Shown here: positions 1 through 4,183 of the stretch, one piece after another
How positions within the stretch are numbered: position 1 is the first letter of the stretch
How the letters are laid out: each line of letters starts with the position of its first letter
The notes under the pieces: generated by a model
Databases searched by the model: none
Told to the model about the DNA's origin: nothing
What the model saw: only the letters and a program-made list of their open reading frames with translations
Position numbers and translations under genes: made by a program
Source of the DNA: Enterobacteria phage FrSangria
Sequence record: PP430145.1
Direction: 5' to 3' (one strand)
Length of the DNA stretch: 4,183 bases

Positions 1-49
1 TTAGGGGGTCACCTCACACAGCAGTATTTCACTGAGTATAAGAGGACAT
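1..49 (+). other. 5' untranslated leader (partial); 2-10 'TAGGGGGTC' looks like the 3' half of the Qβ 5'-terminal hairpin whose G-rich 5' partner lies outside the window
   Basis: Non-coding sequence upstream of the first ATG at 50. As I recall it, the Qβ genome begins GGGGACCCCCUUUAGGGGGUCACC..., and the window starts inside that sequence. Confidence 0.7.
39..46 (+). promoter_or_regulatory. Shine-Dalgarno region of the maturation gene (TAAGAGGA, 3-nt spacer to ATG at 50)
   Basis: Purine-rich GAGGA at 42-46 lies directly upstream of the ATG at 50-52. Confidence 0.6.
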
Positions 50-1312
50 ATGCCTAAATTACCACGTGGTCTGCGTTTCGGAGCCGATAATGAAATTCTT
101 AATGATTTTCAGGAGCTCTGGTTTCCAGACCTCTTTATCGAATCTTCCGACACACACCCGTGGTACACACTGAAAGGCCGTGTGTTGAATGCCCATCTTG
201 ATGATCGCTTACCTAATGTAAGCGGTCGCCAGGTTAGGCGAACTCCACATCGTGTTACTGTTCCGATTGCCTCTTCAGGCCTTCGTCCAGTAACAACCGT
301 TCAGTATGATCCCACAGCACTATCGTTCTTATTGAACGCTCGTGTTGATTGGGATTTCGGTAATGGCGACAGTGCGAACCTTGTCATTAATGACTTTTTG
401 TTTCGCACCTTCGCGCCTAAGGAGTTCGATTTCTCGAATTCCTTAGTTCCTCGTTATAACCAGGCCTTCTCCGCTTTTAATGCCAAATATGGCACTATGA
501 TCGGTGAAGGGCTCGAGACTATAAAATATCTCGGGCTTTTACTGCGCAGACTGCGTGAGGGTTACCGCGCTGTGAAGCGTGGCGATTTACGTGCTCTTCG
601 CAGGGTTATCCAGACTTACCATAAAGGTAAATGGAAACCGACTACTGCTGGTAATCTCTGGCTCGAATTTCGTTATGGCCTTATGCCGCTCTTCTATGAC
701 ATCAGAGATGTCATGTTAGACTGGCAGAAACGTCATGATAAGATTCAACGCCTCCTCCGGTTTTCAGTTGGTCACGGCGAGGACTATGTTGTCGAATTTG
801 ACAACTTATATCCTGCTGTTACCTACTTTAAACTGAAAGGTGAGATTACACTCGAACGCCGTCATCGTCACGGCATATCTTACGCTAATCGCGAAGGATA
901 TGCTGTTTTCGATAACGGTTCCCTTCGGCCTGTGTCCGATTGGAAGGAACTTGCCACCGCATTCATCAATCCGCACGAGGTTGCATGGGAGTTAACTCCC
1001 TACAGTTTCGTTGTCGATTGGTTCTTGAATGTCGGTGACATACTTGCTCAGCAAGGTCAGCTATATCATAATATCGATATTGTAGACGGTTACGACAGAC
1101 GTGACATTCGCCTCAAATCTTTCACTATAAAAGGTGAACGAAATGGGCGACCTGTCAACGTTTCTGCCGACCTATCTGCTGTCGATACATTTTATAGTCG
1201 ACTTCATACTAGCAAGCTTCCGTTCGCTACACTCGATCTCGATACTACCTTCAGTTCGTATAAACACGTTCTTGATAGTATCTTTCTATTAACCCAACGC
1301 ATTAAGCGTTGA
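50..1312 (+). CDS. A2: Maturation protein A2 (pilus attachment protein; in Qβ-like phages also the lysis protein, inhibiting MurA)
   Basis: A 420-aa ORF from ATG 50 to TGA 1310-1312. The translation MPKLPRGLRFGADNEILNDFQELWFPDLFIESSDTHPWYTLKGRVLNAHLDD... agrees closely with Qβ A2 as I recall it. First gene in the order and the expected size for a Qubevirus maturation protein. Confidence 0.93.
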   Translation: MPKLPRGLRFGADNEILNDFQELWFPDLFIESSDTHPWYTLKGRVLNAHLDDRLPNVSGRQVRRTPHRVTVPIASSGLRPVTTVQYDPTALSFLLNARVDWDFGNGDSANLVINDFLFRTFAPKEFDFSNSLVPRYNQAFSAFNAKYGTMIGEGLETIKYLGLLLRRLREGYRAVKRGDLRALRRVIQTYHKGKWKPTTAGNLWLEFRYGLMPLFYDIRDVMLDWQKRHDKIQRLLRFSVGHGEDYVVEFDNLYPAVTYFKLKGEITLERRHRHGISYANREGYAVFDNGSLRPVSDWKELATAFINPHEVAWELTPYSFVVDWFLNVGDILAQQGQLYHNIDIVDGYDRRDIRLKSFTIKGERNGRPVNVSADLSAVDTFYSRLHTSKLPFATLDLDTTFSSYKHVLDSIFLLTQRIKR

Positions 1313-1332
1313 AACTTTGGGTCAATTTGATC

Positions 1333-1734
1333 ATGGCAAAATTAGAGACTGTTACTTTAAGTAACATCGGGAAAGATGGAAAACAAAATCTGGTCCTCAA
1401 TCCGCGTGGGGTAAATCCCACTAACGGTGTTGCCGCGCTTTCACAAGCGGGTGCAGTTCCTGCGCTGGAGAAGCGTGTTACCATTTCGGTATCTCAGCCT
1501 TCTCGCAACCGTAAGAACTACAAAGTCCAGGTTAAGATCCAGAACCCGACCGCTTGCGCTGCAAACGGTTCTTGTGACCCATCCGTTACTCGCCAGGCGT
1601 ATGCTGACGTGACCTTTTCGTTCACGCAGTATAGTACCGATGAGGAACGAGCTTTCGTTCGTACAGAGCTTGCTGCTCTGCTCGCTAGTCCTCTGTTGAT
1701 CGATGCTATCGATCAGTTGAATCCAGCGTATTGA
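1333..1734 (+). CDS. cp: Major coat (capsid) protein, 133 aa
   Basis: ATG at 1333 gives MAKLETVTLSNIGKDGKQNLVLNPRGVNPTNGV...LLIDAIDQLNPAY, ending at TGA 1732-1734. This is near-identical to the Qβ coat protein. The ORF track's start at 1309 is a TTG upstream of the real ATG and overlaps the A2 stop. Confidence 0.95.
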   Translation: MAKLETVTLSNIGKDGKQNLVLNPRGVNPTNGVAALSQAGAVPALEKRVTISVSQPSRNRKNYKVQVKIQNPTACAANGSCDPSVTRQAYADVTFSFTQYSTDEERAFVRTELAALLASPLLIDAIDQLNPAY

Positions 1735-2325
1735 ACGTTGCTCATTGCCGGTGGTGGCTCAGGGTCCAACCCCGATCCGGTTATCACTCCGGATCCACCG
1801 ATTGATCCGCCGCCAGGGACAGGTAAGTATACCTGTCCTTTCGCAATTTGGTCCTTAGAAGAGGTTTACGAGCCTCCTACTAAGAACCGACCGTGGCCTA
1901 TCTATAATGCTGTTGAACTCCAGCCTCGCAAATTTGATGTTGCCCTTAAAGATCTTTTGGGCAATACAAAATGGCGCGACTGGGATTCTCGGCTTAGTTA
2001 TACCACGTTCCGCGGTTGCCGTGGCAACGGTTACATTGACCTTGACGCGACTTATCTTGCTACTGATCAGGCTATGCGTGATCAGAAGTACGATATTCGC
2101 GAGGGCAAGAAACCTGGTGCTTTCGGTAACATTGAGCGATTCATTTATCTTAAGTCGATAAATGCTTATTGCTCTCTTAGCGATATTGCGGCCTATCACG
2201 CCGATGGTGTGATAGTTGGCTTTTGGCGCGATCCATCTAGTGGTGGTGCCATACCGTTTGACTTCACTAAGTTTGATAAGACTAAATGTCCTATTCAAGC
2301 CGTGATAGTCGTTCCTCGTGCTTAG
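1333..2325 (+). CDS. A1: A1 read-through minor capsid protein (coat domain plus C-terminal extension made by UGA suppression)
   Basis: The frame stays open from the coat UGA to the tandem stops TAG/TAA at 2323-2328. The extension ...GGGSGSNPDPVITPDPPIDPPPGTGKYTCPFAIWSLEEVYEPP...CPIQAVIVVPRA agrees with the Qβ A1 read-through domain as I recall it, including the Gly/Pro-rich hinge. Confidence 0.9.
1732..1734 (+). promoter_or_regulatory. Leaky UGA stop codon of the coat gene (programmed translational read-through site)
   Basis: The TGA at 1732-1734 is followed in the same frame by 591 nt with no stop until TAG-TAA at 2323-2328. In Qβ a low percentage of ribosomes read this UGA as Trp, producing A1. 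Confidence 0.9.
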
Positions 2326-2330
2326 TAACT

Positions 2331-2335
2331 AAGGA
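2331..2335 (+). promoter_or_regulatory. Shine-Dalgarno (AAGGA) for the replicase gene, 8-nt spacer to ATG at 2344
   Basis: The sequence TAACTAAGGATGAAATGCATG places AAGGA at 2331-2335, upstream of the replicase start codon. Confidence 0.6.
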
Positions 2336-2339
2336 TGAA

Positions 2340-2359
2340 ATGCATGTCTAAGACAGCAT
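2340..2359 (+). promoter_or_regulatory. Translational operator hairpin (coat-protein binding site) containing the replicase start codon
   Basis: AUGCAUGUCUAAGACAGCAU folds as an 8-bp stem (2340-2343/2356-2359 and 2345-2348/2352-2355) with a bulged A at 2344 and a 3-nt loop UAA (2349-2351). The replicase AUG (2344-2346) sits in the stem. This matches the Qβ coat-protein operator architecture. Confidence 0.85.
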
Positions 2360-4113
2360 CTTCGCATAACTCTCCTAGCGCACAATTGCGCCGAGCTGCG
2401 AACACAAGAATTGAGGTAGAAGGTAACCTCGCACTTTCCATTGCCAACGATCTATTGTTGGCTTATGGTCAATCGCCATTTAGCTCCGAAGCCGAGTGTA
2501 TTTCATTCAGCCCGAGATTCGACGGGACCCCGGATGACTTTAGGATAAATTATCTTAAAGCCGAGATCATGTCGAAGTATGGCGATTTCAGCCTAGGTAT
2601 TGATACCGAAGCTGCTGCCTGGGAAAAGTTCCTGGCAGCAGAGGCTGAATGTGCTTTAACGAACGCTCGCCTCTATAGACCTGACTACAGTGAGGATTTC
2701 AATTTCTCACTGGGTGAGTCATGTATCCACATGGCTCGCAGAAAAATAGCCAAGTTAATAGGAGACGCGCCGTCCATTGAGGGTATGTTGCGTCACTGCC
2801 GATTTTCTGGCGGTGCCACAACAACGAATAACCGTTCGTACGGTCATCCGTCCTTCAAGTTTGCGCTTCCACAAGCGTGTACGCCTCGGGCTTTGAAGTA
2901 TGTTTTGGCTCTTAGAGCTTCTACACACTTCGATATCAGAGTTTCTGATATTAGCCCTTTTAATAAAGCAGTTACTGTACCTAAGAACAGTAAGACTGAT
3001 CGTTGTATTGCTATCGAGCCCGGTTGGAATATGTTTTTTCAACTAGGCGTTGGTGGCATTTTACGCGACCGGTTGCGTTGCTGGGGTATCGATCTGAATG
3101 ATCAGACGATAAATCAGCGTCGCGCTCACGAAGGCTCTGTCACTAATAACTTAGCGACGGTTGATCTCTCAGCGGCAAGCGATTCTATATCTCTTGCTCT
3201 CTGTGAGCTCTTATTGCCCCCAGGTTGGTTTGAAGTCCTTATGGACCTCAGATCACCGAAAGGGCGGTTGCCTGACGGTAGTGTTGTTACCTACGAGAAA
3301 ATATCCTCTATGGGTAACGGATACACATTCGAGCTTGAGTCGCTTATTTTTGCTTCTCTTGCCCGTTCCGTTTGTGAGATACTGGACTTAGACTCGTCTG
3401 AGGTTACTGTTTACGGAGACGATATTATTTTACCGTCCTGTGCAGTACCTGCCCTTCAGGAAGTTTTTAAGTATGTTGGTTTTACCACCAATACTAAAAA
3501 GACTTTCTCCGAGGGGCCGTTCAGAGAGTCGTGCGGTAAGCACTACTATTCTGGCGTAGATGTTACTCCCTTTTACATACGTCACCGTATAGTGAGCCCT
3601 GCCGATTTGATATTGGTTTTGAATAACCTATATCGGTGGGCCACAATTGATGGCGTATGGGATCCTAGGGCCTATTCCGTTTACCTCAAGTATCGTAAGT
3701 TGTTGCCTAAACAGCTGCAACGTAATACTATACCTGATGGTTACGGTGATGGAGCCCTCGTCGGATCGGTCTTGATCAATCCTTTCGCGAAAAACCGCGG
3801 GTGGATCCGGTATGTACCGGTGATCATAGACCATACAAGGGACCGAGAGCGCGTTGAATCGGGATCGTATCTCTACGATCTCTTTTCGCGTTGCTTCTCG
3901 GAAAGTAACGATGGGTTGCCTCTAAGGGGTCCGTCGAGTTGCGATTCTGTAAATCTGCTTGCTATCGACCAACTTATCTGCAGGAGCAATCCTACTAAGA
4001 TAAGCAGGTCTACTGGTAAGTTCGATATACAGTATATCGCGTGCAGTAGCCGTGTTCTGGCACCCTACGGGGTCTTCCAGGGCACGAAGGTTACATCTCT
4101 ACACGAGGTGTAA
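2344..4113 (+). CDS. rep: RNA-dependent RNA polymerase, replicase beta subunit (589 aa)
   Basis: ATG at 2344 gives MSKTASSHNSPSAQLRRAANTRIEVEGN..., ending at TAA 4111-4113. It contains the catalytic YGDD motif at 3412-3423 (VTVYGDDIILPS). The translation is near-identical to the Qβ replicase as I recall it. The ORF-track start at 2335 (MKCM...) is an in-frame upstream ATG and probably not the real start. Confidence 0.95.
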   Translation: MSKTASSHNSPSAQLRRAANTRIEVEGNLALSIANDLLLAYGQSPFSSEAECISFSPRFDGTPDDFRINYLKAEIMSKYGDFSLGIDTEAAAWEKFLAAEAECALTNARLYRPDYSEDFNFSLGESCIHMARRKIAKLIGDAPSIEGMLRHCRFSGGATTTNNRSYGHPSFKFALPQACTPRALKYVLALRASTHFDIRVSDISPFNKAVTVPKNSKTDRCIAIEPGWNMFFQLGVGGILRDRLRCWGIDLNDQTINQRRAHEGSVTNNLATVDLSAASDSISLALCELLLPPGWFEVLMDLRSPKGRLPDGSVVTYEKISSMGNGYTFELESLIFASLARSVCEILDLDSSEVTVYGDDIILPSCAVPALQEVFKYVGFTTNTKKTFSEGPFRESCGKHYYSGVDVTPFYIRHRIVSPADLILVLNNLYRWATIDGVWDPRAYSVYLKYRKLLPKQLQRNTIPDGYGDGALVGSVLINPFAKNRGWIRYVPVIIDHTRDRERVESGSYLYDLFSRCFSESNDGLPLRGPSSCDSVNLLAIDQLICRSNPTKISRSTGKFDIQYIACSSRVLAPYGVFQGTKVTSLHEV

Positions 4114-4183
4114 CCTGGGAGGGCGCCATTATGGCGCCTAATTGTGAATAAATTATCACAATTACTCTTATGAGTGAGAGAGG
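4114..4183 (+). other. 3' untranslated region (partial, 3' terminus missing) with two stem-loops
   Basis: Hairpin 1 at 4122-4138 is GGCGCCA-UUA-UGGCGCC (7-bp perfect stem, 3-nt loop). Hairpin 2 at 4140-4163 is AAUUGUGA-(AUAAAUUA)-UCACAAUU (8-bp stem). The window ends in ...GAGUGAGAGAGG, without the C-rich terminal segment and the CCA/CCCA end expected for a levivirus. Confidence 0.75.

Follow-up and report, generated by a model that had tools for sequence, protein, structure and literature searches.

Does the short hairpin over the start of the replicase gene of phage FrSangria serve as an operator through which the coat protein represses replicase translation, as in Qβ? We examined this question for positions 2340-2359 of the window, that is, of the whole 4,183-nt stretch of DNA that was analysed (PP430145.1), to which all coordinates refer unless another record is named. 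Taking the predicted fold, the position, the RNA identity, the conservation, and the coat protein together, we consider it very probable that 2340-2359 is the replicase translational operator of a Qβ-type phage and is repressed by the coat protein.

The replicase start and its hairpin

The whole window (1-4183) aligned end to end with Qβ isolates at 92-95% identity, a genome-wide difference from the known isolates of approximately 5-8%. The top match was strain HL4-9 (FJ483841, 95.1%), which aligned over positions 13-4195 of its 4221-nt record, so that the window falls short of the full record by just 12 nt on the 5' side and 26 nt on the 3' side. Judged by its sequence, the window represents almost the entire genome of a Qβ-type RNA phage (Qubevirus durum). 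The Qβ gene order (A2, coat with the A1 read-through, and replicase) was kept, all four genes were intact, and each of the four proteins gave a strong Pfam match. The genes were assigned as follows.

50-1312: maturation/lysis protein A2 gene (ORF and Pfam)
1333..1734 (+): coat protein gene, encoding the proposed repressor (Pfam Levi_coat, 6e-60), with a leaky UGA end at 1732-1734
to 2325: A1 read-through extension of the coat gene (ORF and Pfam)
2344..4113 (+): replicase beta-subunit gene, the proposed regulated target (Pfam RNA_replicase_B, 2.7e-217; ORF)

Four features were located at the junction between the A1 extension and the replicase gene.

2331..2335 (+): replicase Shine-Dalgarno sequence AAGGA, read from the sequence, 5 nt upstream of the operator hairpin and outside it
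2340..2359 (+): coat-protein operator hairpin (very probable), from the fold, the Qβ identity, the covariation in the genus, and the pair probabilities
2344..2346 (+): replicase start codon AUG, homologous to the annotated starts of all relatives (Qβ, M11, MX1, SP, NL95, and FI), with ATG invariant in columns 31-33 of alignment A1
2349..2351 (+): loop U(+6) A(+7) A(+8), with A at its second and third positions in 16/16 sequences and U or A at the first

The longest open reading frame in the ORF list opens at an upstream in-frame ATG at 2335 (MKCMSKT...). This codon was rejected as the replicase start: it is confined to Qβ-type isolates, shares sequence with the Shine-Dalgarno element, and is passed over in favour of the downstream AUG in the annotation of every record. 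The homologous Shine-Dalgarno sequence of the relatives reads AAGGAG or AAAGGAG. As a separate observation, the segment 2335-2351 holds three AUGs within 12 nt, the first (2335) in the replicase frame, the second (2340) off frame, and the third (2344) the real start; the AUG at 2340 opens a mini-ORF encoding Met-His-Val that is terminated by the UAA of the hairpin loop.

The plus strand of 2340-2359, AUGCAUGUCUAAGACAGCAU, gave the same minimum free energy (MFE) and centroid structure, ((((.((((...)))))))), at -5.7 kcal/mol. The stem comprises 8 bp in two 4-bp blocks, the lower formed by 2340-2343 and 2356-2359 and the upper by 2345-2348 and 2352-2355, with A2344 bulged on the 5' side and a 3-nt loop of U2349, A2350, and A2351 (UAA). 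Numbered as in the literature, A2344 becomes +1 and the loop +6 to +8, with A2351 as A+8. The fold did not change between the isolated 20-mer, contexts of 51 and 101 nt, and the whole-window MFE structure, and the partition function in a 1.4-kb context gave pair probabilities of 0.84-1.00, with A2344 unpaired at a probability of 1.00. Secondary-structure prediction thus returned exactly the 8-bp stem, bulged A, and UAA loop that the preliminary description had taken to be directly readable. That description had also put the replicase AUG inside the stem, and the codon indeed lies within the hairpin: its A is the bulge, U2345 pairs with A2355, and G2346 pairs with C2354. The Shine-Dalgarno sequence (2331-2335), unlike the AUG, is left uncovered by the hairpin. 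The minus strand of the same interval, AUGCUGUCUUAGACAUGCAU, can likewise form 8 bp at -5.7 kcal/mol, with a 3-nt UUA loop whose last base is A and a bulged U on the 3' side.

When the 20-mer was compared with the published Qβ operator, as had been proposed, all 20 positions were identical (20/20 with AB971354, 2348-2367), and the sequence also matched the operator printed in PMC12724129. The same 20 nt were found in five other Qβ-type phage isolates and in contig L016 (identical to L020), and L019 carries them as well. Substitutions at the loop or the bulge, which had been named as grounds for refutation, were looked for; none was present in the loop, which includes A+8 (2351), or at the bulged A+1 (2344). 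FrSangria and Qβ share the 20 nt, the fold, the placement on the replicase AUG, the organisation of the genome, and the coat pocket residues; the RNA shows zero differences, and the five substitutions in the window's coat protein lie away from the cited contacts. On this sequence comparison, the hairpin is the Qβ operator itself and not a variant, every defining feature that can be tested in sequence having been found in it. The Qβ operator was reportedly treated by Witherell and Uhlenbeck in 1989, by Lim, Spingola, and Peabody in 1996, and by Rumnieks and Tars in 2014 (PDB 4L8H).

Among more distant systems, MS2/R17 (Emesvirus) shares the logic, in that a coat dimer sits on a hairpin at the replicase start by means of an adenine pocket and tyrosine stacking (PMC12724129, PMC3561173, PMC11724954). 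In the MS2 operator, a 7-bp stem with an unpaired purine at -10 carries a 4-nt loop, and the AUG is found at the stem's 3' foot, whereas the hairpin in the window has a 3-nt loop, an 8-bp stem, and the AUG in its 5' arm; an MS2-type operator was ruled out by loop size, stem length, and AUG position. In PP7 (Pepevirus), the coat protein likewise binds a hairpin where the replicase gene begins, and the loop of this operator is 6 nt long. Published comparisons report that loop size and stem length differ between the MS2 and Qβ operators (PMC12724129) and that PP7 recognises RNA in a very different mode (PMC7467689), by which a PP7-type operator was ruled out as well. Within the genus, the operators of M11, MX1, SP, FI, and NL95 share with the window the upper stem UGUC/GACA, a WAA loop, and a 4-bp lower stem over the AUG, although the SP laboratory strains have a C·A in the upper stem.

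Repression and the coat protein

Late in infection, translation of the Qβ replicase gene is repressed by the coat protein, which binds a hairpin at the beginning of that gene (PMC7467689, PMC3561173, PMC2978339), and the replicase initiation site is first opened by translation through the coat gene (PMC2978339). The late shut-off of replicase claimed in the preliminary description is thus the published account for Qβ. Because the RNA is identical to the Qβ operator, we infer that the coat protein of this strain would bind the hairpin and repress replicase in the same way. Being weak (-5.7 kcal/mol), the hairpin would open readily in early infection, and ribosomes would initiate at the AUG at 2344. 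As the coat protein builds up, one of its dimers would bind the folded hairpin, with A2351 (A+8) entering a pocket of N30, T49, S51, and Q65, A2350 and the bulged A2344 stacking on Tyr89 of the two subunits, and the 54-61 loop contacting the lower stem. The bound dimer would lock the AUG in the stem and sterically block the 30S subunit, so that replicase synthesis would stop. The predicted folds agree with such a two-layer picture, in which a weak operator would allow initiation until the coat dimer clamps it. The same coat-operator complex is probably also a high-affinity contact for genome packaging.

Packaging could, on the other hand, be the main selected role of the hairpin, which would then act as the highest-affinity coat contact in capsid-assembly nucleation, with repression as a side effect. 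The operator has been suggested to initiate specific encapsidation as well (PMC3561173), and assembly is described as nucleated by many coat-binding RNA hairpins (PMC7467689). The window is also rich in hairpins of the operator class, defined as having a 3-nt loop ending in A, at least 8 bp, and at most 1 bulge: 7 were observed, against 2.7 ± 1.6 expected per shuffled window under a null of dinucleotide shuffles of the window, and 1% of the shuffles reached 7. A pure packaging signal, however, has no need to be placed exactly over the replicase AUG, as this hairpin is in every member of the genus, and the literature describes repression as the function (PMC7467689, PMC2978339). We therefore judge it unlikely that packaging is the main role and repression a by-product, while the two roles are not mutually exclusive.

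Besides the operator, six more hairpins of the class were located, at 507-540, 695-715, 1347-1368, 2532-2555, 3909-3936, and 4121-4139. They are candidates for dispersed coat contacts of the kind described for Qβ virions.

Repression by the strain's own coat protein also presupposes a competent RNA-binding surface. The window's coat protein was identical to the Qβ coat in the PDB (5KIP, 1QBE) at 128/133 residues, and the same search retrieved 4L8H, the crystal complex of coat and operator. The five substitutions relative to the PDB sequence were G9S, T18N, S34A, V50I, and T75A (mature numbering), and none of the five falls on a cited RNA-contact residue. According to the literature, the A+8 adenine pocket consists of Asn30, Thr49, Ser51, and Gln65 (PMC7354602), A+1 and A+7 stack on tyrosines of two subunits (PMC12724129), this tyrosine being Tyr89 (PMC11724954), and the coat loop Gln54-Asn61 touches the lower stem (PMC11724954). 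The pocket (N30/T49/S51/Q65), Y89, and the 54-61 loop were all intact in the window's coat, and N30, V32, T49, S51, R59, K60, K63, Q65, K67, D91, and the 54-61 loop were invariant in 8 genus members.

These residues bear on a second alternative, that the hairpin is a passive structural attenuator of initiation and that coat binding has been lost or has become irrelevant in this strain through its coat substitutions. The U and G of the AUG are indeed paired in a structure predicted with high probability, five substitutions are present, and V50 adjoins the pocket residues T49 and S51. Yet -5.7 kcal/mol is weak for a stand-alone block, and the cited contact residues are all intact. Moreover, G9S, S34A, and V50I are the normal residues of M11 and MX1, and V50I was fixed in all three viable heat-adapted Qβ lines (PMC7354602). 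Since M11 and MX1 also carry Ile at this position, V50I in the window (codon 1483-1485) is probably a natural polymorphism. A purely passive attenuator thus appears very unlikely, and coat-mediated repression remains the preferred reading. An RNA identical to the characterised operator, a stem that folds, and an intact coat pocket agree with the intact coat/replicase circuit proposed in the preliminary description, in which binding by this coat protein would be expected from the sequences. The statement there that the Qβ pair is widely used as an RNA-tagging tool was overstated, as the pair performs worse than MS2 and PP7, the standard tags: the natural Qβ RNA has low activity and less than 3-fold selectivity against the MS2 coat protein in cells, and it cross-binds the MS2 coat (PMC11724954).

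Differences around coat residue 89 were noted in other members of the genus. The equivalent of Tyr89 is Phe in SP and FI 4184b (L004 and L018, residue 89), and residues 88-90 of the NL95 coat (L005) are Gly-Ser-Arg, against Ala-Tyr-Ala in Qβ. The operators of SP, FI 4184b, and NL95 keep the upper stem and the loop despite these changes at coat residues 88-90.

Conservation and covariation in the genus

The folding statistics of the hairpin were modest. The bare 20-mer had a z-score of -2.41, with 7/200 shuffles folding equally well, and the z-scores in context were -0.85 (51 nt) and -1.02 (101 nt). Together with the 7 class hairpins against 2.7 expected, these values mean that thermodynamics alone is no proof; the operator is set apart from chance by its position, its identity, and its covariation. 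A scan of 4227 Rfam families gave no match at 2340-2359, and there was accordingly no curated covariance model with which to score the site. Elsewhere in the window, the Rfam family mir-2574 was returned at 1915-1988 with sub-threshold scores of 22.8 and 21.9 bits (one per strand) against a gathering score of 90, and the match was taken as chance. The segment itself, in the A1 read-through region, is a long imperfect hairpin that is real.

Across 8 Qβ-type sequences, the operator contained zero variable sites. It lies within the longest invariant run, 59 nt at 2302-2360, found in a 601-nt region in which 11.8% of the sites were variable among these 8 sequences; the run ends one base past the hairpin. 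The synonymous third positions 2349, 2352, 2355, and 2358 were invariant in all 8.

A wider comparison was made with an ungapped alignment of 16 sequences, comprising the window, six Qβ-type isolates, M11, MX1, SP, four FI strains, NL95, and FI 4184b. The upper stem UGUC/GACA and the loop residues A+7 and A+8 were invariant in this alignment. The lower stem differed by lineage, being AUGC/GCAU in Qβ, UAGC/GCUA in SP and FI, AAGC/GCUU in NL95, and UUGC/GCAA in FI 4184b. Protein-guided scans found 4 loci in viral contigs and 3 in metagenome contigs, with a sole new lineage (the metagenomic L022), whose coat protein is 84% identical and whose lower stem is UAGC/GCUA. The outer pairs of the lower stem compensate, alignment pair 27-46 being A-U or U-A and pair 28-45 U-A or A-U. 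Both sides were changed in 4/11 distinct rows for pair 27-46 and in 6/11 for pair 28-45 (approximately 6/16 sequences each), and since this covariation mostly splits two species-level clades, it reflects few independent events, approximately 3-4. In the operator helix, 94% of the alignment cells were paired. For the operator together with a second hairpin immediately upstream (described below), which add up to 15 pairs, the value was 93.3%, and it fell to 23-50% when the 3' partner was slid by 1-3 columns. RNAalifold returned the same structure, containing both hairpins. Taken together, the sequences indicate that the operator structure has been held in evolution by compensatory change.

The 5' arm of the lower stem (2340-2343) is intercistronic and non-coding, and the 3' arm encodes Ala-Ser, where a change at 2359 swaps the serine codon family from UCU to AGU. 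Covariation between the two arms, only one of which is coding, extends to this serine-family switch, and coding constraint alone was rejected on that ground. That the hairpin arose by chance and is conserved only through the coding of Met-Ser-Lys-Thr-Ala-Ser is accordingly next to impossible in our estimate, even with about 2.7 such hairpins expected per window, weak context z-scores, and an upper stem and loop that are both coding and invariant, in view of the covariation between the two arms, the fixed synonymous third positions in the 8 Qβ-type sequences, and the identity with the RNA crystallised with the coat protein.

In M11 (L002, 2348-2369) and MX1 (L003, 2347-2368), the 3' lower arm is displaced downstream by 2 nt. 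This allows A+1 to pair with a U and moves the bulge from the 5' to the 3' strand, where the bulged base is a C. A bulged A is typical of Qβ-type operators but is not known to be required for Qβ coat binding, and the shift of the bulge in M11 and MX1 fits this property.

All SP laboratory records (L004, 2438-2457; L023, L024, and L025) read AUGCC, not AUGUC. With this C, the upper stem contains a C·A mismatch and residue 2 of the replicase is Pro and not Ser; the predicted pair probabilities are lower, at 0.00-0.74. The FI strains BR1 and BR8, which are close to SP, retain the U (AUGUC).

The upstream hairpin and a predicted long-range pairing

Two further structures were predicted around the replicase Shine-Dalgarno sequence.

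2316..2338 (+): upstream hairpin, from local folds, with the core CUUAG-UAA-CUAAG at 2321-2333 and outer pairs between 2316-2319 and 2335-2338
1580..1648 (+): coat-gene segment predicted to pair at long range with 2311-2337 (including the Shine-Dalgarno sequence), from the whole-window MFE structure and the 1.4-kb partition function

The upstream hairpin has 5+4 bp around a G·G mismatch and, like the operator, a UAA triloop. Both stop codons of A1, UAG (2323) and UAA (2326), fall within it, and part of the Shine-Dalgarno sequence is contained in its 3' arm. The hairpin was kept throughout the genus with an NAA loop, 5/7 tested pairs had changed on both sides, and RNAalifold retained it.

In the predicted long-range pairing, CAUCCGUUACU pairs with AGUAAC..GGAUG and GAGGAACG with CGUUCCUC, with duplex energies of -15 and -18 kcal/mol. 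Homologous partners in the coat gene were predicted in Qβ, M11, and MX1, and both arms were changed in M11; the pairing was absent from the 1.4-kb partition-function predictions for SP, NL95, and FI, in which the local hairpin formed instead. As predicted conformations, the long-range pairing and the local upstream hairpin compete with one another. The predicted pairing fits the published coupling of replicase to coat translation (PMC2978339). It is conceivable, though improbable, that the upstream hairpin is a second, weaker site for a coat dimer, or a switch that alternates with the pairing of 2311-2337 and 1580-1648. If the putative coat site were real, two operator-like hairpins in tandem would let the coat protein clamp the AUG as well as the Shine-Dalgarno sequence.

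The operator itself is already known, and the original observation was correct but ordinary. Few RNA-protein switches are better characterised, and an exact copy is no surprise in an isolate that is 95% identical. The result has little value beyond annotation: the window is recognised as a Qβ-type genome with what appears to be an intact coat/replicase feedback, and the true replicase start is placed at 2344, not 2335. For the genus, the comparison is of minor value in that the lower stem covaries, the bulge switches strand in M11 and MX1, and SP tolerates a C·A in the upper stem.
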